Origin: an uncultured Bacteroidota bacterium
Lineage (GTDB): Bacteria > Bacteroidota > Ignavibacteria > UBA10030 > UBA6906
Length of the DNA stretch: 64,000 nucleotides
Reading direction: 5' to 3'
NCBI GenBank assembly: GCA_963700635.1
Contig: CAVOYH010000004.1
Location: 768,001 to 832,000 of the forward strand
Part shown: in pieces, positions 4,438-25,622 of the stretch
Layout of the letters: every line of letters starts with the position of its first letter
Position numbering within the stretch: the first letter of the stretch is position 1
Position numbers and translations under genes: made by a program
The notes under the pieces: model-generated
What the model saw: only the letters and a program-made list of their open reading frames with translations
What the model was told of the DNA's origin: nothing
The model's database searches: none

Positions 4438-7195
<2,758 letters not shown>

Positions 7196-13962: not shown

Positions 13963-14853
13963 TCTTCTTGACAGTGTAACTCGCGTGCCGCAACCGGGCC
14001 TTCGGCGATGCCCATCCCATTCTGAGGTAGCAGCCAAGGGCTGGAAGGTGTCCACGCCGAACCCTACATTTTCCCCGTGTGGATGAGAACTGTGACAGAC
14101 AAACAGTGTCTGCCTTCGCTGCGGATCTCAGCTCACCCCGGCGGCTTGAGCCCCCCTGAATGCAAGTGTTGACAGTCCAAGCTAGACTCATTAAAGTTCC
14201 TTATAGCTTCAAAATTTACCCCTGATGGAGATCGGGATCTCGTAAGGATTTTGAAATCAAGAGTAAGCTCCGGTATATTATCAGTGTCTCATGTCATATG
14301 CGTGATGGTTCTTGGGTCAGAGGGGAACGAAAGTAGCACGCATAGTCTTTTCGGGACTTATAAGGAAGAAAGTTGCTCAAATTCTTGAGTACAAGGTGAG
14401 CATCCCCCCGTTCATTCGGTCTCCCCAAAAGGCTAATATATCCTGGGAGGCGGGTCCACATGGAAGAACATCGAGCGCGGCAGCGACTAGAACGGCAAAT
14501 CATCCATAATGCTGGGGGGCTATTAGCCTAAGAGTGTCGTAGTGAGTCGTCAGCGTGATGGGATCTGGACGTGGCTTCGTGCAACTCCATCGGTACGATC
14601 GGGAGTTTGCTGAGAATGTCGACCAAGCGTTTTCGGACAAAAGGAACCCTTCTGGTGAAGGAAAGATGAAGTACAATGCTATCGACATGTACCGGAACGA
14701 TCCATCAGCGCAGCTGGGAGGACGGGTCCGGCAGTATCCCGGAGTGGGCATTATGCGTGGCAGAACCAACGGGAAGGGAAAGGTTAGCTCGATGACTGGG
14801 TCGGCTGAGTGAGATTGATGTCCAGATAAAACCAAGGCGCTGGTTTAATCCTG

Positions 14854-14875
14854 TGGGTACACCCACTTTCTTTTG
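14854..14875 (+). terminator. possible weak intrinsic terminator
   Basis: GTGGG-TACA-CCCAC followed by TTTCTTTT. Confidence 0.35.
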
Positions 14876-15411
14876 CACTTTCTGATAAATGTGACTACAT
14901 TCGCGGTATCTGATATTTTGCCTCTATCGAGTGTTATTCCTTCGAGCCCAAGTTAGCCAAATGCAACGCATTAAGTAGACATCGACTTGGCTCGTTCCCC
15001 ATGAGAAGGAGAGAATGTGGCACATGTTGCCATCCCTCGCCTTGAACGTTCGAGACGAAGGTCTCCCGATGAACGCTCGCCTCCTAAACCGGCAGCACAA
15101 TAGTTTCAAGCTGATATCGGACCTCCGCTGCCAGTTGAAATGCACCACCCAGCATTGGCACAGGAGAATCCGCCACCTAGAAAGGGGAAAATCTTAAATT
15201 TTAGGTGCAATTGAATATTCACGCCGAGATAGCCCCAGTCGACAGACATTAGCCCAATTCCTCTATTCGGGCTCCCCAATCGGCTCTGATATTCGTAAAA
15301 ATCAGGAAACCAGTGTAAGATATTAGAAGGGGCGTTGATTTTTCCTCGGCGGATTGGGAGAGCTGTAATATTCGGTCACAGAATTTTCATCTGTCGATTG
15401 GGTCTTGGTGG

Positions 15412-15943
15412 ATGCGAAAAAGCGACCCGGATGTACTAGACACTTACGCAGACTTGATTGCAAAAGCCTATCGGCGCTACAAAGGCTTCTGGATCAATCT
15501 GGCGCGCACCTCCTTGGTAACCCAAGAGGATGGTGAAGATATTGTTCACGGGGTCGTTGGATCGATACTGGCGAGACGCGATATCGGCTTCGAATCGCTC
15601 GAACACGTCCGAAACTACGCTCGCGCGGTCTGTTTTGAACCGTGCCATCCAAATTAGGCAGAGGGCGGTACGAGTGTGTGAATTTGAAGAAGAAGTTTCG
15701 ATCGAAATTGCACCCTTGGAGCAGGTGGAGATTCTTGAGAGGCAGGAGGAGCGTGCTGCGTTACGGGCAGTGATTAATGGGTTGAGTCGACAGGACTATG
15801 AAATCATTAAATTGAGATTCTTTTCCGGACTTACATTTATCGAGATTAGCAGGATGCTTCAAAAGCCAGTATCGACCCTCAAAAGCAGGGAAGACGCTGC
15901 TTTGCGAAGGATCAGAAAGGATATGCAAAAGCGTGCCGGATAG
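15412..15943 (+). CDS. ECF-type RNA polymerase sigma factor (frameshift near 15620)
   Basis: Region 2 (EDGEDIVH...RNY|LARSVLNRAI) and region 4 (LSRQDYEIIKLRFFSGLTFIEISRMLQKPVSTLKSR) lie in different frames. Confidence 0.85.
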
Positions 15944-15980
15944 TAGCGTGGCCTTCAATCTTTGACCCGGAGTCTTCCTG

Positions 15981-16778
15981 ATGAAAAGACATGGCAAATC
16001 TGTTGTCAAGTCATATTCTCTTGTAGATTTTGCTCGCGGACAACTAACCTGCGAAGAATCTCTGGAAATTCTGGGAATTCTCGAGGAAGATTCGACTAGA
16101 TCAGAGGAGCTCGAAATTGTGCTCAGAATGCTTGAGCCCAATTCGGCTGTTGGGAGCTCGGTCATAACCGATGACGAAAAGAAGAAGGCAGGACGCAAGG
16201 CCGTCCGAGATCAGCATACTGGCTTCGAGGTAATAGTCCGTAGTGCTGCGCTCGCAATCCTCGTTGTGGGAACGGCGCTCTTGGCGCAGGAATTTGGAAA
16301 GCCCGAAGGGTTCAATCTTCTTCACGTAAATCCAAATGACATTGACATCAGAACCCGGGGTGAACCCGAAAAGATTGCAGAGATCGCATACGCCTTAATA
16401 TGCGAAGGTGAGAACAAGCGTGCTATGGAACTAGTCGATTGGAGTCTGAGTGCACTTCCGGAAGGTGATGGACGCGCCCATTCACATCTCTTGAAGGGCG
16501 GTCTATTGTTGATGAAGTCGGAAATCTATTACCTGGCAATTTTTTCCCATTTCGATTCGACGCTCGTGCGGCAGGGCTTAAACGAATTAGATCTCGCTCG
16601 CAGGATGTCAGGTCAGAGGAGAGTTATCGAGGGTGCAATTTGGTTGAGCATCAAAGGGAATCTGATGATTGGCGACAGATTCAAGGCGTTGGAACAAATC
16701 GAGGCGTTAGAGTCGAGTGGGGGTGTCCGACATGCGGAAGCAAGTCGGCTAAGGCACTTACTCGATGATTGGGAATGA
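15981..16778 (+). CDS. putative membrane-anchored anti-sigma factor
   Basis: Directly after the ECF; N-terminal LVDFARGQLTCEE helix bundle (degenerate zf-HC2-like, no HxxxCxxC), one TM (~aa 84-102), helical TPR-like C-domain. Confidence 0.65.
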   Translation: MKRHGKSVVKSYSLVDFARGQLTCEESLEILGILEEDSTRSEELEIVLRMLEPNSAVGSSVITDDEKKKAGRKAVRDQHTGFEVIVRSAALAILVVGTALLAQEFGKPEGFNLLHVNPNDIDIRTRGEPEKIAEIAYALICEGENKRAMELVDWSLSALPEGDGRAHSHLLKGGLLLMKSEIYYLAIFSHFDSTLVRQGLNELDLARRMSGQRRVIEGAIWLSIKGNLMIGDRFKALEQIEALESSGGVRHAEASRLRHLLDDWE

Positions 16779-16811
16779 CCACGTATTGAAAATCAGAAGG
16801 GTGCACTTGCC

Positions 16812-19800
16812 ATGAGGATCCCCTTAGCATGGGTCTGCCTAGTCCTCTCGGTTCAAATTGGTTCCGCAGCCAGCAAAATTGAGGCTGACCTACATGTTCA
16901 GCTTCGACGGATAATCGGAAAGGGTCATTACGATGAGGCTCTCCGACGTTGTATGAAACTCCTTATTCAACAACCCCAAACAGCTCAGCTCTATGAGATG
17001 AGTGCAGAGATTGGACAATACGGCGGTCAGTTGCCTGAGGTCAGCGCGTTTCTCAGAGAAAGAATTCGTGCCGGTCAAAACGTGCCATATGCATTGTTTG
17101 GGTGTGGGCAAGTCTATTTGAGGGAGGGAAAATGGTCCAATGCCATGCTAATGTTTGAAAGGGCGCAGTCGTTCGATTTGCAGATACCCTCTCTTTATGC
17201 AGGCATGGAACTAGCCTTCGAGAAACTCAACGGCGTGGATGCAGCGATTGAGTACTATCTCGCGTCTTCGCAGCGTGATCCGCGCAATGCAGGGATCTGG
17301 TATTCACTCGCCCTCGCTTATTGGAGCCGAGCCGATCCCGAAAATACTTTATCAGCAATCGATGAGTCCTTGAGACTTTCTGAAAATGAGCCAAGGTTTC
17401 GTCAACTTAAGGCTGGAGCCATGTACACTTGGTTGCTCGATGATCAATCCTTCAAAGCTGCTACCCACGAGATCCAGGCGGCGATAGCCCTTTGTGACTT
17501 CGATGGGGCTGAGTTTGTAAGGTGGTGTCTGGTAGACGGTTTGTCCTCGCAAGGAGAATGGGATCGGGCGTGTGCCATCGCGAAGGAAGCCAATAAGAGC
17601 GTTCGCGAATTCGGGCAAGTTAAGTGGACAGCGCATATCCACCTCGCGTTGGCGGTAAGAGAGCTAGCTCTGGGGGATCTCCATGGTTCATTAAATCATG
17701 CTGATTCTTCAAGTAAATATTTCAGTATGGTAAATGATGTCGATGGACTTCTTTCGAGTCGGGCCATTAAGATTGGAATACTTCGGGAATCTGGATCCGT
17801 TCAAACCGGACTGAAATACTGCTTCGAGGTATTCTCGGATCTTTCCGAAAGGAGCGACTCACGCCTTTGGGGCGGTGCATTCATCGACGCTGCATGGACG
17901 TTCGCTGAGATCGGAGCATTCCGGATCGCTTTGGCGATGGGTATAGAAGCCCAGCGAATTCTCCAGCGGTGTCTCTACGCAGATTATGATCAGGTTAGAT
18001 TGTACACTGCACTTGGACTGATTCACCAGAAAATCGGTAATCTGCCTCTCGCTATTCGATACCAGCGCCGGGCTCTCGGAATCGCCGAAGCTACCAATGC
18101 TCCACGAAATGCGCTATCTACCTGCGTAGGTCAATTGGCCGTCTCATTACTCTTGTTTGGAGACACGCTTGCTGCACGGACGCATTTTCGACGACAACTC
18201 AATCTTGCAAGAAAAGAGGGAGATCCAGGAGAAGAGAAGAAAGCACTGTATCATCTGGCAGAGCTAGATCTCGGGATGGCCTTGTACGGAGCCGCAAGAA
18301 GGAAAATCGAGACGGCCATGGACATTTCTCGAAAACAGAAAGACGATCGGACACTGAAGCAGTGTTACCTTCTCCTCGGCAGGATCGCGGAAAAGGAGGA
18401 AAAGAAGGGTGAAGCAATGTCGCACTACGGCCGCTCATTGAAGTATTTCAATGAGGAGAGAGGACGAAGACATCTCTTCATGATGACGGTGGAGATGAAG
18501 GAATGGTATCTCACTCAACATGAAGAAATAGTAAATGCACTCTGTCGAGTGGGTCTCATTGATGAAGCTTTTGCCTTGATTGAGAGTGTGCGCTGCGACG
18601 CTCAATACAGGTATCACTCTCGTTCATCTGAATCCAGGCGTGAACTTCGTCGTATTGAGGGCACTAGCGATGTAGAACTCATTATCTCCTCGTACAGGAA
18701 AAGTTGTCGCGACATTTCTACTAAAATGGAGGAAGACAAGATTGATTGGAGTCTACTTCTACCCGCGCTGAGGAAGAACCTTGCGATTGTTGACACACTT
18801 CACCAACTTGAAGAGGTGCCGGGTAGGATCCCAGAATTGCCTGCTACCAGAAACGACTCACGTGAAATCATCTCGCACATTCGGAATCGAATTCTGCAGA
18901 AGGGGGATGCACTTGTTGAGTTCTGGGTGGGGCATGTATCGACGGAGCGGTTTCTTTTGACTCGTGATACTCTTGTACATCATAGTTTGATGTTAGAGAA
19001 GGCGAAGTTGAATAAGTGGGTCATTCCCCTATTGGACCATTTTGGCGGAGAGGGGAGCATAAGCGATTCCTACCGAAGAGAGCGTCCCTCCGGGCAGTAC
19101 CAGGCGGAGCTTGTCGCTATTTCAGATTTGCTGCTGGGGGGTCTTCAGAACTTCCTTCTAGAAAAAGGCAACTTGATAGTGGTTGCAGGTCAGCCACTTG
19201 CGAGCTTGCCCTTCGAAGGAATGGTTTTGAGAACCGCGTCGGGGCTGAGGCAGTTGGTCGAAGAATTTGCGATATCGTATGCCCCGTGCATCTTTGCTTT
19301 GGAACCGCTTCCTGACTTGTCAACATTTGATCCAGCCGATCTTCTTGTGCTGGCTAACCCGCTGCCAGACAAGATCGTCGGAATAGATGCAATGATCCAA
19401 GCGGATTCAATTCGTTCGGGTGCTATGACCGATGGATATCGACTAGAACTGCCGGCAGCAGTAAGAGAGGCAGAGAGAATTCGCGCCGTGTTCGGATCTA
19501 CGAGTGTGATAAGGCTTGGACGTGAGGCCTCTGAAGGAGTCATGGCACGCGAATCAGCGCATTTTCGGATTATCCATATCGCTGCACATTCCACGTCACG
19601 CAAGAAGGTAAGCGATAGGCATGCAATCATCTTGTCTCCTGACGAAGAGAATGATGGGATCCTCGAATACAGGGAAATCGCAGCGCTGGATCTCAGAAGT
19701 GACTTGGTTGTGATCACAGGCTGTAGAGCAGGGGAGCCCAGCAGGGCGAACGATTGGGGAAGTCTCGCGGAGGCGTTCATTGAAGCTGGAGCCTCGAGTG

Positions 19801-20129
19801 TTATCGCGACACATTGGGATGTTGAAGATGTGGTTGCTGACAGGCTCTTTGGGCTATTCTACAGTTACCTAAGATCGGGAGAATCGCGTGCGCGCTCTCT
19901 CCAGTTGGCGAAACTATCTCTAATGAAGGATGGATTTACCGATGTGCGACTTTGGTGTGGTTTTCGACTATTCGGAAGGCATCACCCGATCGCTTGGTCA
20001 AAAAGGGATGACGGGGATGCTGTTGAATATCTTCACGCGGCTGCCGTCGCCTCTTTGCTGCTAATGATGGCCTCAGTGGTATTCTACTCGATCCGAAGAA
20101 AGAAAAGGAAATGTCCCTCGGCATCGTAG
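16812..20129 (+). CDS. TPR-repeat CHAT-domain (caspase-like, clan CD) protease with signal peptide and C-terminal TM anchor
   Basis: TPR helices, LASLPFEGM, IIHIAAHS (His), DGILEYREI, LVVITGCRAG (Cys), AGASSVIATHWDVED; C-terminal hydrophobic helix followed by RRKKRK. Confidence 0.9.
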   Translation: MRIPLAWVCLVLSVQIGSAASKIEADLHVQLRRIIGKGHYDEALRRCMKLLIQQPQTAQLYEMSAEIGQYGGQLPEVSAFLRERIRAGQNVPYALFGCGQVYLREGKWSNAMLMFERAQSFDLQIPSLYAGMELAFEKLNGVDAAIEYYLASSQRDPRNAGIWYSLALAYWSRADPENTLSAIDESLRLSENEPRFRQLKAGAMYTWLLDDQSFKAATHEIQAAIALCDFDGAEFVRWCLVDGLSSQGEWDRACAIAKEANKSVREFGQVKWTAHIHLALAVRELALGDLHGSLNHADSSSKYFSMVNDVDGLLSSRAIKIGILRESGSVQTGLKYCFEVFSDLSERSDSRLWGGAFIDAAWTFAEIGAFRIALAMGIEAQRILQRCLYADYDQVRLYTALGLIHQKIGNLPLAIRYQRRALGIAEATNAPRNALSTCVGQLAVSLLLFGDTLAARTHFRRQLNLARKEGDPGEEKKALYHLAELDLGMALYGAARRKIETAMDISRKQKDDRTLKQCYLLLGRIAEKEEKKGEAMSHYGRSLKYFNEERGRRHLFMMTVEMKEWYLTQHEEIVNALCRVGLIDEAFALIESVRCDAQYRYHSRSSESRRELRRIEGTSDVELIISSYRKSCRDISTKMEEDKIDWSLLLPALRKNLAIVDTLHQLEEVPGRIPELPATRNDSREIISHIRNRILQKGDALVEFWVGHVSTERFLLTRDTLVHHSLMLEKAKLNKWVIPLLDHFGGEGSISDSYRRERPSGQYQAELVAISDLLLGGLQNFLLEKGNLIVVAGQPLASLPFEGMVLRTASGLRQLVEEFAISYAPCIFALEPLPDLSTFDPADLLVLANPLPDKIVGIDAMIQADSIRSGAMTDGYRLELPAAVREAERIRAVFGSTSVIRLGREASEGVMARESAHFRIIHIAAHSTSRKKVSDRHAIILSPDEENDGILEYREIAALDLRSDLVVITGCRAGEPSRANDWGSLAEAFIEAGASSVIATHWDVEDVVADRLFGLFYSYLRSGESRARSLQLAKLSLMKDGFTDVRLWCGFRLFGRHHPIAWSKRDDGDAVEYLHAAAVASLLLMMASVVFYSIRRKKRKCPSAS

Positions 20130-20154
20130 GCTGACTCTGGGTATCCAGTTTCAC

Positions 20155-21103
20155 TCACCCCAGCCCAATCGTAAACGGCGCAAGGGCAAAGCCAACTACT
20201 AAGCATCCACAAACAAAACCACCCTACCTGCATCCGCGTGTGATCCAACGGCGCATCATCAGGCAATACCATCGCCCCACGCGTGCGCCGCTCAAAAAAG
20301 ATGAACAAGATCACCGCCCAGAATAACCAACCCGTCCAACCCCACTCGTCACTCATCCCGATCAACGGCAAAAAACCCAATAACCCCAATCCGGCTAACA
20401 CCCCGATCACCACCCGGCCTATGACCACCGACTTCCCCCCAAACATCGCCCGCACAATGTGACCACCATCCAACTGACCAACTGGTATCAAATTCATCGC
20501 CGTCACCAACAACCCGAACCACCCTACACATAAAAATGGATAATGATACATCTCGTTCATCGGCGGAATAAATGCACCGGGTGCCGGAAGGATCGCCTCC
20601 AACCCCGCATACACAAAGTTTCGCCCAAAAGCTAAACCCCCCGCCGGGATCTGACTCAATCCCACATACTCCGGATGTATCTCGTATAAATAGTCAATCG
20701 ATGGCAATGTCAGAAATCCGATCACCAGGTACGCAACACTCACAACAAAACCTGCAATCGGTCCGGCCGCGCCAATGTCCAGTAACGCCCGACGACTCTG
20801 AACCGGCGACCGTAACTGAATTACCGCCCCTAATGTGCCGAACGGAAAAAGACCCAAAACAAAAGAAGGGAAGGGAAGGAAATACGGCAGGGTGGCCTCT
20901 ACCCCGTGCCGCTTCGCCGCAAGATAATGACCCATCTCGTGACTCAATAACATCAATGACAACAGCACGGCGTACGAAATGCCGTACCCAAAATTTGTCA
21001 GCTCTATCGGATTTTTGTTCAACCACGCCACCCCCGCAAAAGCCATGGTCAGAAAGGTCAGAACAAAAAGAGAGGCATGAACAGCAATAGTTCTAATTCT
21101 CAC
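20155..21103 (-). CDS. site-2 protease (M50 family intramembrane metalloprotease); probable frameshift near 20200
   Basis: HEMGH, FGTLGAVI, DIGAAGPIAG, NLIPVGQLDGGH; the hydrophobic end VVGFALAPFTIGLG* is in another frame with a stop at 20155 (as-read ORF runs to 20084). Confidence 0.9.
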
Positions 21104-21125
21104 GTGCCCTGTAGTATACTGAGGA

Positions 21126-21204
21126 TAATAAAAGAGTAGACACTACGCATAAAGGAGAGACCGCCTTTTGAGCTTCTCATAACTTTCTGCATAGTGCCTA
21201 CTCT
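21126..21204 (-). terminator. long hairpin terminator downstream of the repeat-peptide gene
   Basis: Minus strand AGAGTAGGCACTATGCAGAAAG ... CTTTATGCGTAGTGTCTACTCT forms a 22-bp stem with two G-U pairs and one mismatch, followed by TTTATT. Confidence 0.75.
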
Positions 21205-21247
21205 ATGCCACTCACACCACCAAACAACGACCCGCCAGATAGTAGAA

Positions 21248-21508
21248 TTACGGGCGCGGCGAATCGGGGATTACTGGTACGCCGGAAGTGCGTGGGCGCG
21301 GGGAATCCGGAATCACGGGAACACCGCTCGTCCGCTCTCCAACCACCGGGCGCGGGGAATCGGGAATCACAGGCACTCCGCTGGTCCTTGGACGCGGGGA
21401 ATCGGGAATCACAGGGACTCCACTGGCAAACGCTATGGCTGCGTTTGTAGCGGCTACCGCCACTACTGTGATTACCAGTGAACGAAACCGACGAGCGGTC
21501 TTTGACAT
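21248..21508 (-). CDS. 86-aa secreted precursor with signal peptide and four SGVPVIPDSPRP repeats
   Basis: GGAGGAG RBS just before the ATG; MSKTARRFRS-LVITVVAVAATNAA-IAFA signal peptide; four aa-identical cores differing only by synonymous changes. Confidence 0.9.
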   Translation of the reverse strand: MSKTARRFRSLVITVVAVAATNAAIAFASGVPVIPDSPRPRTSGVPVIPDSPRPVVGERTSGVPVIPDSPRPRTSGVPVIPDSPRP

Positions 21509-21794
21509 AACTCCTCCGTGAAAGAGAAAAGTGACGCTTAGAAAAAAGGTTGATGTGAGTGGTCTTCGCATACCCAGACTCCGCCGCACAATGCGGATGT
21601 ACTCCACCTCAGTACAGGCCCCACCTCAAAATCGGGGACCCTCATAAGAGAGGTGCGTGACTCTGGTCTGTCAATGAAAAACAGGTTTGATGAGGTCAAC
21701 CGGTGAAGCAGGAATCAGAAAAGACACTCTCCCGAATGTCCTCCCCCCGGCTTGACTCATCTGGGGGTGTCTAATAACCTCCATCTGGGTGAGA

Positions 21795-21823
21795 AATATA
21801 GACAGGTCAATGTGCATTGTCAA
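21795..21823 (-). promoter_or_regulatory. sigma70-type promoter for the peptide gene
   Basis: TTGACA(21823-21818)-17 bp-TATATT(21800-21795) on the minus strand. Confidence 0.7.
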
Positions 21824-21884
21824 GTTTTTTTTACAGTTTCGCTTATTTTCTGCGTATAATCGAGGTCGTTTTGGGCGTTTTTTC

Positions 21885-21900
21885 TGGCACTAAGCTTGTT
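21885..21900 (+). promoter_or_regulatory. possible sigma54 -24/-12-like element
   Basis: TGGCAC-TAAGC-TTGTT; spacing is correct but the -12 is GT rather than GC. Confidence 0.3.
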
Positions 21901-21974
21901 ACCTGCCTAACCCTGCGATATCTGTGACCCAAAGCACAGCATTACGGTATTCAAAAAAATTTGCGGTTTTACTC

Positions 21975-22003
21975 TTGACAGGCACGAATCACCTGATTAT
22001 ATT
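21975..22003 (+). promoter_or_regulatory. sigma70-type promoter for the membrane protein/regulator operon
   Basis: TTGACA(21975-21980)-17 bp-TATATT(21998-22003). Confidence 0.75.
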
Positions 22004-22029
22004 GATCCACGTATTCTGACATATAGAAC

Positions 22030-23217
22030 ATGAACAGATTCTACATATCGGCTCGGAAGATCTTCTGGTTCTGGATCACCTTTGTGGCGATCTTCACCGG
22101 GGCGCTATGGTTCCTGCCGCATAGCAATTTGGCCCCGTCAGTTTTTACGAGTGTCGTCGCACAAGCGCTTCTCTTCCTGGTCGCTCTCGCTATTGTCCGG
22201 CATGAGAGCAACACTAAGAATAGATTCGTGTTTGCGAACTTTGCGCTTTTGTTCTCCGTTTCACTGGCTGCGGCTATCGCTCCCTTTATCGGACCAGGAT
22301 ACTCTCTTTTTACCGATTTACCTTATGCTCAATACTATTTTAACAATTACCTGCTGTTTGGCGCCTACGGCTTCCTTCTCGCGTTCGCAATAGTCTACCT
22401 CACCGTCGATGCGCTGTTCCGGGAATTTAAGACGGTCCAGAAATATCTCATCGCTTTCTCCATCGTGGGCATGTTCTTCGGACTCTATTTCCATGGCTTC
22501 CTCATCAACCCGAAGTACGCCTATACCACACAGGATGTCCTGGACTGGAAGACGATGGACAACGCTGCACGCATATATGAGGCGGAACACGGCGTAAAAC
22601 CCGATCCAGCCCAGCTTGCAGCCAGCACTGACATGTACGTCTGGAAGAACGGCTATTCGGTCGCTACGCTCCATCCCGATGCCAGAGATGCTCGCGTGGC
22701 TGAACTCTTTCCGTATCTGCACGACAAGAACTATAATGTGCTGCTCTCGAAACCCCTCATGTCCTACCTGATCTCAATGTCCGTGATCGGGATCGGCTTT
22801 ATCCTCCTTTTCTTCGGCTATCAGTACATGAAGGATCCGCCCCAGGGGGCGTATATCGAGAAGATGGTGTTCCTGTTCCTCCTCTTCTGCAGCATGGAAA
22901 TTCTCCATGGCTGGAGCGCCATCAACGTGCTCGAGTGGCAGTCGTTTTCTGAAATCGTGGGCGTCGGACAGTATGCTTCCGTCGGCGTCCTGCTCCTTAT
23001 CGCTGTTGTCTTCGGGCTCCGGCTCCGCTTTATCATGTCAGTCAAAGGGGAGTTCTACGAGCAGGAGCTCGAATCAAGTCCGACCGGCATTACCCGTTGG
23101 AGAGATGCGCTGGATACGATGGTTGTGGAAAGTTTCTTCAACCGAAAAGTCGTACACGGCCGCCTCTTTGCAACAACCGGCGGTAACAAGAACGATTCAA
23201 ATCCAACAACCAGGTAG
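22030..23217 (+). CDS. uncharacterised ~8-TM membrane protein with a large extracytoplasmic loop
   Basis: Eight hydrophobic segments; positive-inside loops (RHESNTKNR, REFKTVQK, RLR) put the ~85-aa loop after TM5 outside and the C-tail inside. Confidence 0.8.
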   Translation: MNRFYISARKIFWFWITFVAIFTGALWFLPHSNLAPSVFTSVVAQALLFLVALAIVRHESNTKNRFVFANFALLFSVSLAAAIAPFIGPGYSLFTDLPYAQYYFNNYLLFGAYGFLLAFAIVYLTVDALFREFKTVQKYLIAFSIVGMFFGLYFHGFLINPKYAYTTQDVLDWKTMDNAARIYEAEHGVKPDPAQLAASTDMYVWKNGYSVATLHPDARDARVAELFPYLHDKNYNVLLSKPLMSYLISMSVIGIGFILLFFGYQYMKDPPQGAYIEKMVFLFLLFCSMEILHGWSAINVLEWQSFSEIVGVGQYASVGVLLLIAVVFGLRLRFIMSVKGEFYEQELESSPTGITRWRDALDTMVVESFFNRKVVHGRLFATTGGNKNDSNPTTR

Positions 23218-23250
23218 GCGGAATACACCGCCCATACATGGGGAAGATAT

Positions 23251-24285
23251 ATGGATCCGAAAGAACATAAGAACAACGGCAACGACGGGGGGAAGGGGAA
23301 ACAGCAGTTTGAGTACCCTATCGTCGGAAAATCGCGCGCTGTTGACCAGCTTGTAAAACAGATCGCCGTCCTGGCGAAGTCACGCCGCGATATCGTGATT
23401 ATCGGCGAAGCCGGCATCGGCAAGGGCGCCGTGGCCAAGAATATCTATATCAACGGCAAGAATATCGGCCACGACGGACCGTTTATGTCCATCAACCTTT
23501 CGGTCGTGGATGACCGCGAACTGGAACTCCTGCTCTTCGGACAGGACCGGAACGGCCAGGGCGTCGAGCCCGCCGATACCCAGTCCGTCTTCGAACAGGG
23601 ACACCGCGGCACACTCCTGATCGAGGACCTGGAAGAAGCCAGCTTCCGTAATCAGATGAAAGTCCTGACGTTCATGAACGAACGGAAGGCCCGGAAGAAC
23701 AGGGGAGAGTCTGGCGGACCTATTGACCTGCGCCTGATCCTGACCATGAAGGGCGAGCCGTCTGTGCTCGTGGACCAGCGTACACTGCTGGATGAGCTCT
23801 ACGCCAAGATCAAGGACTTCGAAAAGATTGACATCCCCCCGCTGCGCCAGCGGCAGGAGGATATCCCGCTCCTTATCAAACACTTCACTTCCGAAATCTG
23901 CCGCGACCTCGGCGTCGCTGACCTTACGATCGATATCAACGCCGTGGATGTGCTCGTGCGACAGCCCTGGCGCGAGAATGTCCGCGAACTCAAAACCGTG
24001 ATCGATAAGTGCGTGCTCTTCTCCACCGACGGCCGGTTTATGCTCCCGCCGGAACTGGTTGACGAGAAGACGGAAGTCGTGAAGATGATCAACAATATCA
24101 AAGCCGGCCAGGAGTTTGTGCTGGACCGCTCTCTGGACGTGATCGAGAAGGGCATTATCGAACGGTCACTGGAGAAGTTCGGATTTAATCAGTCCAAAGC
24201 GGCGCAGTTCCTGGGCATGACGGAACAGACGTTCCGCTACAAACTGAAACGGCTGGGAATCGCAAGCGCCCGCGCGCGCTCGTAG
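23251..24285 (+). CDS. atypical NtrC/sigma54-interacting-family regulator (AAA+ and Fis HTH, no sensor domain, no GAFTGA)
   Basis: IVGKS, GEAGIGK, ELLLFG, IPPLRQRQEDI, WRENVREL, NQSKAAQFLG HTH. Confidence 0.88.
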   Translation: MDPKEHKNNGNDGGKGKQQFEYPIVGKSRAVDQLVKQIAVLAKSRRDIVIIGEAGIGKGAVAKNIYINGKNIGHDGPFMSINLSVVDDRELELLLFGQDRNGQGVEPADTQSVFEQGHRGTLLIEDLEEASFRNQMKVLTFMNERKARKNRGESGGPIDLRLILTMKGEPSVLVDQRTLLDELYAKIKDFEKIDIPPLRQRQEDIPLLIKHFTSEICRDLGVADLTIDINAVDVLVRQPWRENVRELKTVIDKCVLFSTDGRFMLPPELVDEKTEVVKMINNIKAGQEFVLDRSLDVIEKGIIERSLEKFGFNQSKAAQFLGMTEQTFRYKLKRLGIASARARS

Positions 24286-24360
24286 ACCGGCTGATAGACG
24301 CAGGCGCAGCTTTACGGATGGCGCAAAGAGAGGTTACCCTTTCTTTGCGCCATTCGCGTT

Positions 24361-25466
24361 CTAACCCTGCACCCGGCCTTTCCAGATTACCTTGCTGCCT
24401 GTCAGGACAATCGGAGGGAACACCAGCACGTAGAAGAAGTAGTAGAGTTCGTAAAACAGGAAACACGGGCAACAACCCCCACCGCCTGAATCGCGCGATG
24501 ATCGGCAGGCTCAGCAGCAGATCGGCCCCCACCTTCAACCCCAACGCGACCAGCACACCCTCTGTATTCATAGCCAGCCCCACAAGAATCAACAGATGGA
24601 ACAACCAGGCGCCGGCAAAGATGAGAATACTCCTGGCATCCATCCCCTTACCTCCCGTAAACCAGCGCTTCCGCTGACGGAACAGGTCCCTCCAGGTGGG
24701 ACAGGGTTCACTCTCCACAACGGTCGCAAGGTCCATCGGAAAACGGGCTTCGTACTTCGTGCGGGAGGTGACGGCGTGAAACAACGCGTAGTCCTCTGTG
24801 ACACTGAACGGAATACCATCGTATCCGCCCGACTGCATCGTAGGCCGCACGGCGGACCGTAAAATTTGTGCCGACAGCCGTGACCGGGATACCCAGCCGC
24901 GTGGTGGCCGAAGCAACGGAAAACAACACAAACCAGTCCATCGTCTGGATTGCTTCAAAAAGGTTCTTATACCTGATAGCGGTAAAGCCCGGAACAAGCC
25001 CGATGGTCTCATCAGTATAGTACTTTACCGTTTCCTCCACCCAGGCCGGCGGCACGGCGCAGTCGGCATCGGTCATCAACAGGATCTCTCCCGTGGAGGC
25101 GGCAATCCCCTGTGCAACGGCGTTCGTTTTGCCCATCAGGTGGCCCGTACCGGGGGTGGCATGGACCGTCCGGATCACCGGAAAACGGCCTGCATAGTCT
25201 TCAATGATTGCCGGCGTGGCGTCCGTTGAGCGGTCGTTGATGACGATCACTTCGAGCAAGTCACGCGGATAGGTCAGGCGCGAGATCGCATCCAGGCAGT
25301 TCCCGATGTTGGCTTCTTCGTTCCGTGCGGCGATGATCACTGAAACTTTAGGCCGGTATTTTCTGTTTTGTGTGTAGCGAGCAAACAACGCAACAACCGC
25401 AAGGGAAACCATCCCTGCGGCGTACAGAGTGCCGAGAATCAGAAGCACGACGTCAAGCACGGACAC
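24361..25466 (-). CDS. GT2 family membrane glycosyltransferase (apparent frameshifts near 24835 and 24452)
   Basis: SVIIAARNEE, NDRSTD, TDADC, TED, RQRKRW motifs and a terminal VIWKGR spread over three frames. Confidence 0.82.
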
Positions 25467-25622
25467 CTTACCGTTATTGAGGACAAAGGGGTAAAAAAGA
25501 ATACTGAATTCCCGTTCTGGAAGCAAGGCGGGGATTTTGCACTTTCCCGATGTTTGTGTATATTAAGGACATCGTTTTCCTGTCACCGGCACTAAAAATC
25601 CACAAATTCTCAAGGAGGACCC

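Follow-up and report, generated by a model that had tools for sequence, protein, structure and literature searches.

The 9-kb block between positions 15412 and 24285 of the DNA examined here raises the question of whether a small gene for a secretion-type peptide with tandem repeats and the six genes around it make up one signaling system. The window is the whole stretch analyzed, 64 kb long (contig C4, positions 768001 to 832000), from a 4.2-Mb genome of a member of the Ignavibacteria in a 6-contig assembly, and coordinates below are positions within it unless another contig or locus is named. A preliminary description had interpreted the block as one complete peptide-signaling locus. An open reading frame (ORF) listing and family scans confirmed the gene map behind that interpretation, recovering seven ORFs in the same order and orientation, all at the coordinates and with the domains given there, with the label of anti-sigma factor derived from position and a hydrophobic segment. 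The interpretation itself is supported in part; the reading as one complete locus is not, given the presence of the site-2 protease of the block in genomes that lack the repeat peptide and its partners and the restriction of the sigma factor genes to 8 of 40 loci. The block is a composite of three evolutionary units and not one system: unit A (here also module A), a patchy add-on that encodes a sigma factor of the extracytoplasmic function (ECF) type, an anti-sigma factor, and a TPR-CHAT protease predicted to be periplasmic; unit B, an M50 protease that is an ancestral neighbor; and unit C, the novel part, which consists of the repeat-peptide gene, a gene for a membrane protein with eight transmembrane segments (8-TM), and a gene for an AAA+/helix-turn-helix (HTH) regulator. 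The three genes of unit C, hereafter the triad, are as follows.

21251-21508, minus strand: repeat-peptide precursor, 86 amino acids (aa), with a 28-aa leader followed by four copies of SGVPVIPDSPRP
22030-23217, plus strand: 8-TM membrane protein, 395 aa, a new family without a Pfam or NCBIfam match
23251-24285, plus strand: AAA+/Fis-HTH regulator of the NtrC/PspF family, 344 aa (Sigma54_activat, PF00158, 1.8e-22; HTH_8, PF02954, 2.4e-12)

The neighborhood was compared across 20-kb stretches in 20 relatives and across 72 species-level loci; all relatives used are metagenome-assembled genomes, mostly labeled Ignavibacteriota, Ignavibacteria, or Bacteroidota, with a few labeled otherwise. The regulator gene lies directly 3' of the 8-TM gene in every one of the 65 species-level loci with room for it. 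Among the 57 loci with at least 700 nucleotides (nt) upstream of the 8-TM gene, a rule-based search recovered a divergent upstream ORF with a leader and repeats (or P[RK]P) in 51, of which 50 have at least two repeats. In 50 of the 57, 2 to 9 repeats stand behind a leader with a K/R-rich start, a hydrophobic stretch, and S/A-x-A, the signal peptides having been assessed by eye. Inspection of the six loci where the rule failed revealed two frameshifted copies, one broken leader, two single-copy variants, and one rearrangement. The repeat peptide proposed in the preliminary description is thus real, a conserved precursor of secretion type with orthologs in 51 of 57 loci.

The triad is also tied together by its distribution. 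The 8-TM gene was found in 29 of 41 relatives and the regulator gene in 29, the two being largely absent from the same genomes, and across the class the 8-TM profile matched 15 of 151 sampled genomes, all in a few families. Four complete genomes from two families (f6 and f7) have kept the M50 gene and lack the 8-TM gene as well as the regulator; a search of the upstream sequence, available for three of them, found no repeat-peptide ORF, the contig of the fourth ending there. No triad gene was found at the M50 locus in 12 genomes of other orders or in six of other classes. These gene contents indicate that the three genes are acquired and lost together, with the flanks left in place, and that the triad is confined to one lineage of Ignavibacteria. 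The gene-neighborhood check anchored on the 8-TM gene, which the preliminary description had suggested, accordingly bore out the co-occurrence of peptide and regulator, whereas the M50 gene also occurs without the triad and most loci of the triad are without module A. The suggested tie between the repeat peptide and the 8-TM/AAA+ pair stands, since the three genes co-occur and are lost together, and we regard the conserved, undescribed triad as a well-supported finding. Full-text literature searches yielded no description of the triad gene set or of peptide signaling in Ignavibacteria.

Further support for the pairing of the 8-TM protein with the regulator comes from paralogs that adjoin independently. 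In two genomes (loci L136, 6483-9818, and L137, 6278-9561, both on the minus strand), a gene for a regulator-like AAA+/HTH protein is followed by two 8-TM-like genes, in clusters situated downstream of lon and dnaX and upstream of a gene for an outer-membrane-barrel-like protein. Another genome, G039, carries second tandem 8-TM/regulator pairs. Apparent fusions of the two proteins in three to four loci were ruled out by an in-frame stop that separates both genes, and no fusion was found among longer proteins (693 to 2,000 aa), which is weak evidence. Between the window and its nearest relative (G002, locus L013), the peptide is 95% identical, the regulator 88%, the M50 protease 85%, and the 8-TM protein 79%.

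The precursor has a signal-like leader, with a K/R-rich start, a hydrophobic stretch, and the end A-F-A, and its four copies of SGVPVIPDSPRP are separated by the spacers RT, VVGERT, and RT, with the stop codon immediately after the last PRP. It is the only ORF of the genome with at least two identical 8-mers ending in P[RK]P behind a secretion-type leader; one further repeat-bearing ORF, of 508 aa on contig C5, is without such a leader. This uniqueness, together with conservation in relatives, argues against a chance ORF. Repeat bodies vary among species (for example, SGVATTPDAPRP, DGGVEIPIPPRP, and TLDPNNPIYGSPRP) and are identical or nearly so within one precursor, yet despite these species differences the repeats nearly always terminate in P-[RK]-P. 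Mean pairwise identity among 44 precursors, which have 1 to 9 copies with a mode of 3 to 4, is 0.42 for the leader, 0.21 for the seven-residue repeat body, and 0.92 for the terminal P[RK]P. The motif is contained in 44 peptide ORFs and forms the exact end of the ORF in 30 of 57. In many species the first repeat abuts the leader, and in many the last repeat is the end of the ORF, which suggests where the core units begin and end. The peptides are short, roughly neutral, and not cationic; the leader contains an invariant Asn and is more conserved than ordinary signal peptides. Spacers across species are varied (K, RT, KT, TK, D, SSL, and others) and include no dibasic KR sites.

The 8-TM protein had been called an orphan, a label that holds insofar as it belongs to no named family and fails insofar as its profile matches 194 cluster representatives at an E value of ≤0.001 among 1.84 billion, mostly 370 to 400 aa in length. 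An AlphaFold2 (AF2) model built with 13 homologs (pLDDT, 85; pTM, 0.82) shows eight helices in the membrane, a C-terminal tail, and, between transmembrane helices TM5 and TM6, a loop of 75 residues that includes a beta hairpin. From the distribution of basic residues under the positive-inside rule, the N terminus, the loops at residues 56 to 66, 130 to 139, and 265 to 278, and the tail are predicted to be cytoplasmic, and the large loop (residues 160 to 234) to lie outside. Identity by side is 0.57 for cytoplasm-facing parts (0.85 for residues 265 to 278), 0.41 for the membrane helices, and 0.34 for outward-facing parts. Four polar residues in or near the helices are invariant (D127, K138, H293, and R331). 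An Atlas search for relatives of the fold gave no usable match.

The regulator, which also matches AAA_lid_14 (4.1e-14), has NifA, ZraR, NtrC, and PspF (5nss_F, 6e-25) as its top sequence matches in the PDB. Its previous characterization as a degenerate NtrC-type protein is borne out in each of the motifs concerned. The position of the GAFTGA loop is occupied by NGQGVE in an alignment to NifA (9qq6_C), and GAFTGA is absent from all 66 aligned family members; Walker A reads GEAGIGKG in the window versus the canonical GxxGxGKE, and Walker B reads LLIEDL, with a family consensus of LIEEIEE (ED or EE), versus the canonical hhhhDE. Because the GAFTGA loop is missing, the regulator should be unable to activate sigma-54 transcription; rpoN is present in this genome. 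Conservation of the C-terminal HTH region (about 75 residues) exceeds 95% in the family. The AAA+ domain is preceded by no more than about 23 residues and there is no receiver domain, so that the regulator is without a sensory domain of its own.

The intergenic region between the divergent genes of the triad contains the following elements.

21795-21823, minus strand: sigma-70-type promoter of the peptide gene, TTGACA-17-TATATT, 11 of 12 matches, kept in 7 of 7 aligned relatives
21509-21794, minus strand: 5' untranslated region (UTR) of the peptide gene, about 285 nt, with sequence blocks conserved within the genus
21975-22003, plus strand: sigma-70-type, near-consensus promoter of the 8-TM/regulator operon, 11 of 12 matches
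about 21923-21938, plus strand: CRP/FNR-type palindrome TGTGA-N6-GCACA, some 107 nt ahead of the 8-TM start and recovered in 9 of 58 loci
about 21885-21899, plus strand: sigma-54-like element TGGCAC-N5-TTGT, some 145 nt ahead of the 8-TM start and restricted to near relatives

The promoter pattern of the 8-TM gene occurs 26 to 71 nt 5' of the start in 42 of 58 loci, compared with a mean of 0.26 in shuffled sequences. The strict sigma-54 pattern (TGGCAC-N5-TTGY) was found in 3 of 58 loci. An enumeration of palindromes (5+5, with gaps of 0 to 12) in 58 upstream regions recovered no class-wide operator for the conserved HTH, the only palindrome recovered being GTGAT-N4-ATCAC, of CRP/FNR type, in 10 of the 58. 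RNAalifold proposed that a 5' segment of the 5' UTR pairs with the ribosome-binding region, with a covariation term of +0.6; this fold has no covariation support, all pairs being invariant. No terminator-like site was found between the peptide gene and the M50 gene, and it is thus possible that the two are cotranscribed.

The second unit, and the glycosyltransferase gene that serves as a landmark on the far side of the triad, are as follows.

20084-21103, minus strand: PDZ-less M50 site-2 protease (Peptidase_M50, PF02163, 1.1e-21)
24185-25526, minus strand: family-2 glycosyltransferase (GT2), a flanking gene outside the system, frameshifted in this assembly

The M50 protein has the HExxH motif (H55-E-M-G-H59, residues 55 to 59) and the NxxPxxxLDG motif, here NLIPVGQLDGGH. 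The family scan found no PDZ domain in it, the only related signal being a 25-residue match to TIGR00054, and a sequence search against the PDB returned only MJ0392 (0.0018). The genome has three M50 genes, including a separate 471-aa RseP-like one on contig C3. The window's M50 has orthologs in 111 of the 151 genomes compared from the phylum, with 40 to 47% identity in other classes, and in most families the gene heads an operon, M50-X-Y-Z1-Z2, that is conserved across the class and partly across the phylum (seen in loci L016, L021, L023, L026, L028, L105 to L108, and L115 to L132). X (about 295 aa) belongs to no family; Y (about 520 aa) gives BNR/Sortilin-like and FlgD_ig matches; and Z1 and Z2 (about 300 to 350 aa) give weak UPF0164/TraF_2 matches. 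In the window's genome, X and Y have relocated to another contig (G000:C5:197034-199729). The arrangement GT2...M50-X-Y-Z occurs both with the triad placed between GT2 and M50 and without it, and all 12 sampled genomes of other orders have it without the triad; the position of M50 beside the triad is therefore ancestral synteny. In 3 of 52 loci the M50 gene is missing beside an intact triad, with PdxA- and FtsE-like genes beyond the peptide gene instead. The suggestion that the M50 protease is a dedicated partner of the peptide is not supported, in view of its phylum-wide distribution, its occurrence in the same place without the peptide system, and its absence beside the triad in those three loci. 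The comparative data give no specific support for M50 as the peptide-processing enzyme and point to a bystander, although it may still process the peptide or be used as a site-2 protease, or the peptide may provide an input to module A.

The third unit lies beyond the M50 gene.

15412-15943, plus strand: ECF-type sigma factor (TIGR02937, 6.6e-13; Sigma70_r4, 2.2e-09)
15981-16778, plus strand: presumed single-pass anti-sigma factor, 265 aa, directly 3' of the ECF gene, with a hydrophobic segment at about residues 88 to 108
16812-20129, plus strand: TPR-CHAT caspase-like protease, 1105 aa (CHAT, 2.9e-39; TPR_12, 4e-14)

The 265-aa ORF is presumed to be an anti-sigma factor from its position and its one hydrophobic segment; it has no Pfam or NCBIfam match, no H-x3-C-x2-C motif is visible in its N terminus, and orthologs occupy the same place in seven relatives. 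The TPR-CHAT gene is convergent with the M50 gene, their 3' ends overlapping by 46 nt (20084-20129). Residues H922, H926, and C971 of its CHAT domain are invariant in 11 orthologs, with H926 and C971 the predicted catalytic His-Cys dyad. A signal-like N terminus and a C-terminal hydrophobic helix followed by basic residues, which would form a membrane anchor, imply that the TPR and CHAT domains should face the periplasm. The AF2 model of the protein (pLDDT, 80.4) found DdvA chains as its two best Foldseek matches (8rw5, 1.6e-16; 8rot_A, 9.9e-16), followed by separases and the CRISPR-associated Csx29; the type III-E system with which the preliminary description had drawn an analogy thus ranks below DdvA and separase among the structural matches. 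The TM-scores are low (0.24 to 0.30), only fold type and architecture being common, and the sequence search returned TPR proteins only, with no match to DdvA.

Module A was found in 8 of the 40 loci with room for it, a distribution that speaks against one complete locus shared with the peptide. Full-length CHAT orthologs occur in 10 of 41 genomes, the window's own included; all 10 adjoin this M50, one of them in another family. Three further N-terminal CHAT matches lie on contigs too short to place, and weaker CHAT-only matches elsewhere are paralogs. Identity to G002 is 46% for CHAT and 50% for the anti-sigma factor versus 79 to 88% for the 8-TM protein, the regulator, and M50, from which it follows that the CHAT/anti-sigma pair evolves fast. 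No promoter motif is shared upstream of nine ECF genes.

The passages on DdvA in PMC11506125 describe a periplasmic TPR-CHAT protein of Myxococcus xanthus fused to a transmembrane anti-sigma domain, propose its CHAT domain as the site-1 protease, and report DdvA-like proteins only in Myxococcota and one Comamonas. As in the DdvS-DdvA system described there, an ECF sigma factor gene here precedes genes for a presumed membrane anti-sigma factor and for a TPR-CHAT that should face the periplasm and has a His-Cys dyad, and a site-2 protease is at hand, RseP being involved there and an M50 being adjacent here. Unlike in DdvA as presented in that account, the anti-sigma factor (265 aa) and the TPR-CHAT (1105 aa, which brings a C-terminal anchor of its own) are encoded separately, also in relatives; no gene of CBASS or CRISPR type was seen in the block's ORFs; and the host belongs to the Ignavibacteria. 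A scan of the block's ORFs and of those beside it found no cas domain, the genome itself not having been searched for cas genes. Judged from these sequences and the modeled fold, module A would be a split proteolytic anti-sigma switch of DdvS-DdvA type, inserted beside M50 in a subset of genomes. The earlier statement that no described system has this composition therefore holds for the triad, for which no description was found, and fails for the ECF/TPR-CHAT part, which has a counterpart in the DdvS-DdvA system as that study portrays it.

What, then, might the triad do? We tentatively favor, at somewhat short of even confidence, a system in which a secreted multicopy peptide acts through a 7TM-like sensor on an AAA+ transcription factor that has no sensory domain. 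The precursor would leave the cytoplasm through Sec, signal peptidase I would cut it after the conserved S/A-x-A, and the tandem cores of 9 to 14 residues, each ending in P-[RK]-P, would be freed by periplasmic proteolysis. The peptide would bind the outward-facing, fast-evolving half of the 8-TM protein, a 7TM-like bundle of TM2 to TM8, and the conserved cytoplasmic face (the loop at residues 265 to 278 and the C-terminal tail) would hold or release the regulator, as in the control of PspF. Since it could not drive sigma-54 without GAFTGA, the regulator is proposed to activate or repress transcription in the classical way, by binding DNA with its almost invariant Fis-type HTH. Two structural and evolutionary comparisons bear on this proposal. 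A VIA-align search of 48,161 chains placed GPCR-type (G protein-coupled receptor) 7TM proteins in all of the top 50 ranks, the best being 8wr3_B (Z, 14.9; root mean square deviation, 3.7; 222 residues aligned) and rank 50 having a Z of 11.0, with matches that span TM2 to TM8 (model residues about 32 to 340), although Z values of this size are often reached by helical bundles through arrangement alone. The peptide-body distance tracks the distance in TM1 to TM5 after the other regions are removed (partial r, 0.36; permutation p, 0.001), this being one of four regions compared post hoc by a partial Mantel statistic that shared ancestry inflates. A complex prediction from the 8-TM alignment and precursor residues 29 to 86 pointed neither way, with a score of 0.00 in two runs for which there were no controls.

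Several further observations weigh against this mechanism. Foldseek found no match in the PDB for the 8-TM model at an E value of ≤0.001; the GPCR-type match of the modeled TM2 to TM8, of a size that helix arrangement can give by itself, is to be taken as a lead, not a classification. The large outward loop, which had been put forward as the peptide-binding site, does not covary with the peptide body (partial r, −0.04; p, 0.70), which speaks against that site. The two near-consensus promoters would fit constitutive or repressed expression better than simple autoinduction, the nonuniform spacers make no single processing rule evident, and the paralogous 8-TM/regulator clusters are without an adjacent peptide gene. 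The triad always lies at the same chromosomal place, so that its genes have not been seen moving together to new contexts. Peptide production, cleavage, secretion, and sensing are all predictions from the genes.

Some of these same observations suit a different account, unlikely in our estimate, in which the triad is real and the peptide is an output or a coregulated envelope protein rather than a ligand: the 8-TM protein would sense some other cue, such as the membrane or envelope state or a small molecule, and control the regulator in trans in the manner of PspB/C/A and PspF, with the repeat protein staying in the periplasm or on the membrane. The PspF-like architecture of the regulator, with its short segment before the AAA+ domain, is consistent with this account, as are the peptide-free paralogous clusters and the lack of covariation between the peptide and the large outward loop, and the unusually conserved leader with its invariant Asn could be an uncleaved anchor. 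Species-varying, identical repeats that abut S/A-x-A and the stop codon, however, fit released units better, and a near-consensus promoter would be unusual for an activator-dependent output gene. That the small gene is instead an unrelated lineage-specific secreted protein, and the whole arrangement frozen synteny in a slowly rearranging region without a functional link, we consider scarcely credible. The synteny of GT2, M50, and X-Y-Z across the class (in close relatives, also of an amidotransferase gene) and the single chromosomal site of the triad are what this explanation would predict; it is at odds with the gain and loss of the three genes as a set between flanks that stay, with the three loci where the peptide-side flank has changed and the triad is intact, with the conserved divergent promoter architecture, and with the adjacency of 8-TM-like and regulator-like paralogs elsewhere.

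Some ribosomal natural products typically come from multicore precursors whose cores are identical, and PRP motifs recur in proline-rich antimicrobial peptides; the repeats might on these grounds be cores of a secreted bioactive peptide (antimicrobial, adhesive, or nutritional), with the 8-TM protein, whose polar residues D127, K138, H293, and R331 are invariant, serving in processing, export, or immunity and the regulator controlling expression only. This seems very unlikely to us, given that the locus has no conserved gene for a modifying enzyme, an ABC exporter, or an immunity-type function, that the peptides are short, roughly neutral, and not cationic, and that the most conserved parts of the 8-TM protein are predicted to be cytoplasmic, which would be unexpected in a periplasmic processing enzyme. 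Quite unlikely, too, is a model that reunites the block in those genomes that have module A, where the peptide would be bound by the TPR of the periplasmic CHAT protein, CHAT and M50 would act as site-1 and site-2 proteases on the anti-sigma factor and free the ECF sigma factor, and the 8-TM/regulator pair would operate in parallel. This model gains from the adjacency of every placeable full-length TPR-CHAT to M50 and the triad (10 genomes, one of another family), from the invariant catalytic His and Cys and the predicted periplasm-facing topology of CHAT, from the much faster divergence of CHAT and the anti-sigma factor than of their neighbors, and from the precedent of DdvA, described in the relevant passages of PMC11506125 as a periplasmic TPR-CHAT that gates RseP-dependent release of an ECF sigma factor. 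Module A is nevertheless absent from 32 of the 40 loci with room, so that the triad does not need it; M50 is spread across the phylum and holds its position where both modules are absent; the 471-aa RseP-like M50 could serve the anti-sigma factor; the ECF genes share no upstream promoter motif; and adjacency within one clade may reflect a single inherited insertion.

The favored mechanism, the peptide acting through the 8-TM sensor on the regulator, can be compared with several known systems. PspF of Escherichia coli has no N-terminal sensory domain, is controlled in trans by PspA/B/C, keeps GAFTGA, and activates sigma-54. The window's regulator likewise has no N-terminal sensory domain, and trans control by a membrane protein is proposed for it; it differs in that its family is without GAFTGA, its partner is an unrelated 8-TM protein, and there is no PspA-like gene in the locus. 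Regulators of the NtrC family that lack GAFTGA and act with sigma-70 include Rhodobacter capsulatus NtrC and TyrR, with which the window's protein has in common an AAA+ domain without a sigma-54 contact loop and a Fis-type HTH, and from which it is set apart by the lack of receiver, ACT, and PAS domains, by altered Walker motifs (GKG; ED/EE), and by its membrane-protein partner.

Peptide signaling between cells is well documented in Firmicutes and rare in Gram-negatives. The Firmicutes systems of peptide quorum sensing include Agr, Com, and RRNPP, and the M50 protease Eep serves enterococcal and streptococcal pheromones. The triad resembles these in having a small exported-peptide gene beside a presumed sensor and regulator, with an M50 nearby. 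Family scans found no HisKA, HATPase_c, or Response_reg match in any ORF of the block, whose only TPR protein is predicted to be extracytoplasmic, and the locus thus differs from Agr, Com, and RRNPP in having no histidine kinase, response regulator, cytoplasmic TPR receptor, AgrB-like protease, or ABC exporter, as well as in its multicopy precursor and in an M50 that is not specific to the system.

In eukaryotes, the yeast alpha-factor precursor, whose receptor is Ste2, and the Kex2-processed fungal repeat proteins combine a signal peptide with tandem identical peptides and KR sites. The candidate 8-TM receptor would resemble Ste2 in the GPCR-type arrangement of seven helices, with the N terminus of the bundle outside and the C terminus inside. 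The window's precursor, with its signal-like leader and tandem identical short peptides on short spacers, is similar to alpha-factor and to the fungal repeat proteins, which are the subject of PMC7329392. The differences from alpha-factor and Ste2 are that the system here is bacterial, that its spacers are mostly single K or R or nonbasic and not KR, that there are no G proteins and the transcription factor would be directly associated, and that the 8-TM protein carries one more helix at its N terminus; no claim of common descent is made.

Some features of the window and its assembly complete the picture. The lower guanine-plus-cytosine (GC) content that had been reported for the block holds over about 13.5 to 23 kb (0.47 to 0.53 versus 0.56 to 0.60 in the flanks) and does not extend to the regulator gene, which is already at 0.56. 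Two frameshifts lie within 10 kb. The ECF gene is read in two frames, with one extra base in a T-run near 15633-15636, and reads through in one frame in G002, G003, and G005; the GT2 gene is broken within 24708-25012. Since both genes are unbroken in relatives and the first frameshift falls in a T-run, these are probably assembly indel errors and not pseudogenes, and other broken genes of this genome should be interpreted with care. The 1.45 kb directly 5' of the ECF gene (13963-15411) has no ORF of >111 aa and a GC content of about 0.50. This stretch gave no tblastx match in relatives, no Pfam match for its 10 small ORFs, and no Rfam match, and has only one weak direct repeat of 16 nt; it could be a scar of the insertion that brought module A. 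The sole Rfam match at the gathering threshold in the window is an S-adenosylmethionine (SAM) riboswitch at 6985-7098 on the minus strand (RF00162; 75.6 bits; E, 6.2e-16). Among public sequencing runs sharing words with the window, one was listed, of DNA and with 0.05 of the words, and no RNA run was listed.

If the proposed mechanism is true, the findings would have several consequences. The 8-TM protein would represent a new receptor family, without a Pfam model and with 194 cluster representatives, the triad would provide a new mode of controlling an NtrC-family regulator, and the precursor would be the first bacterial multicopy signal precursor with a 7TM-like sensor. The species-specific repeats would then constitute ready orthogonal signal/receptor pairs, and the small size of the triad, with three genes and two strong promoters, makes it amenable to heterologous reconstitution with synthetic peptides. 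The split TPR-CHAT/anti-sigma pair, for its part, would extend the DdvA-type sigma switch to a second phylum, and with the protease separate from its presumed substrate, the proposed site-1 cleavage becomes directly testable in trans. In its broadest form, which we consider doubtful, the triad would correspond, in bacteria, to the peptide-hormone signaling of eukaryotes, as a system in which species-specific peptide "dialects" are recognized by a GPCR-type seven-helix receptor that gates a sigma-54-independent AAA+ factor, in some genomes coupled to a split DdvA-like switch. It would then be the first peptide pheromone system in the Bacteroidota and Ignavibacteria, assembled from parts unused in known quorum sensing.

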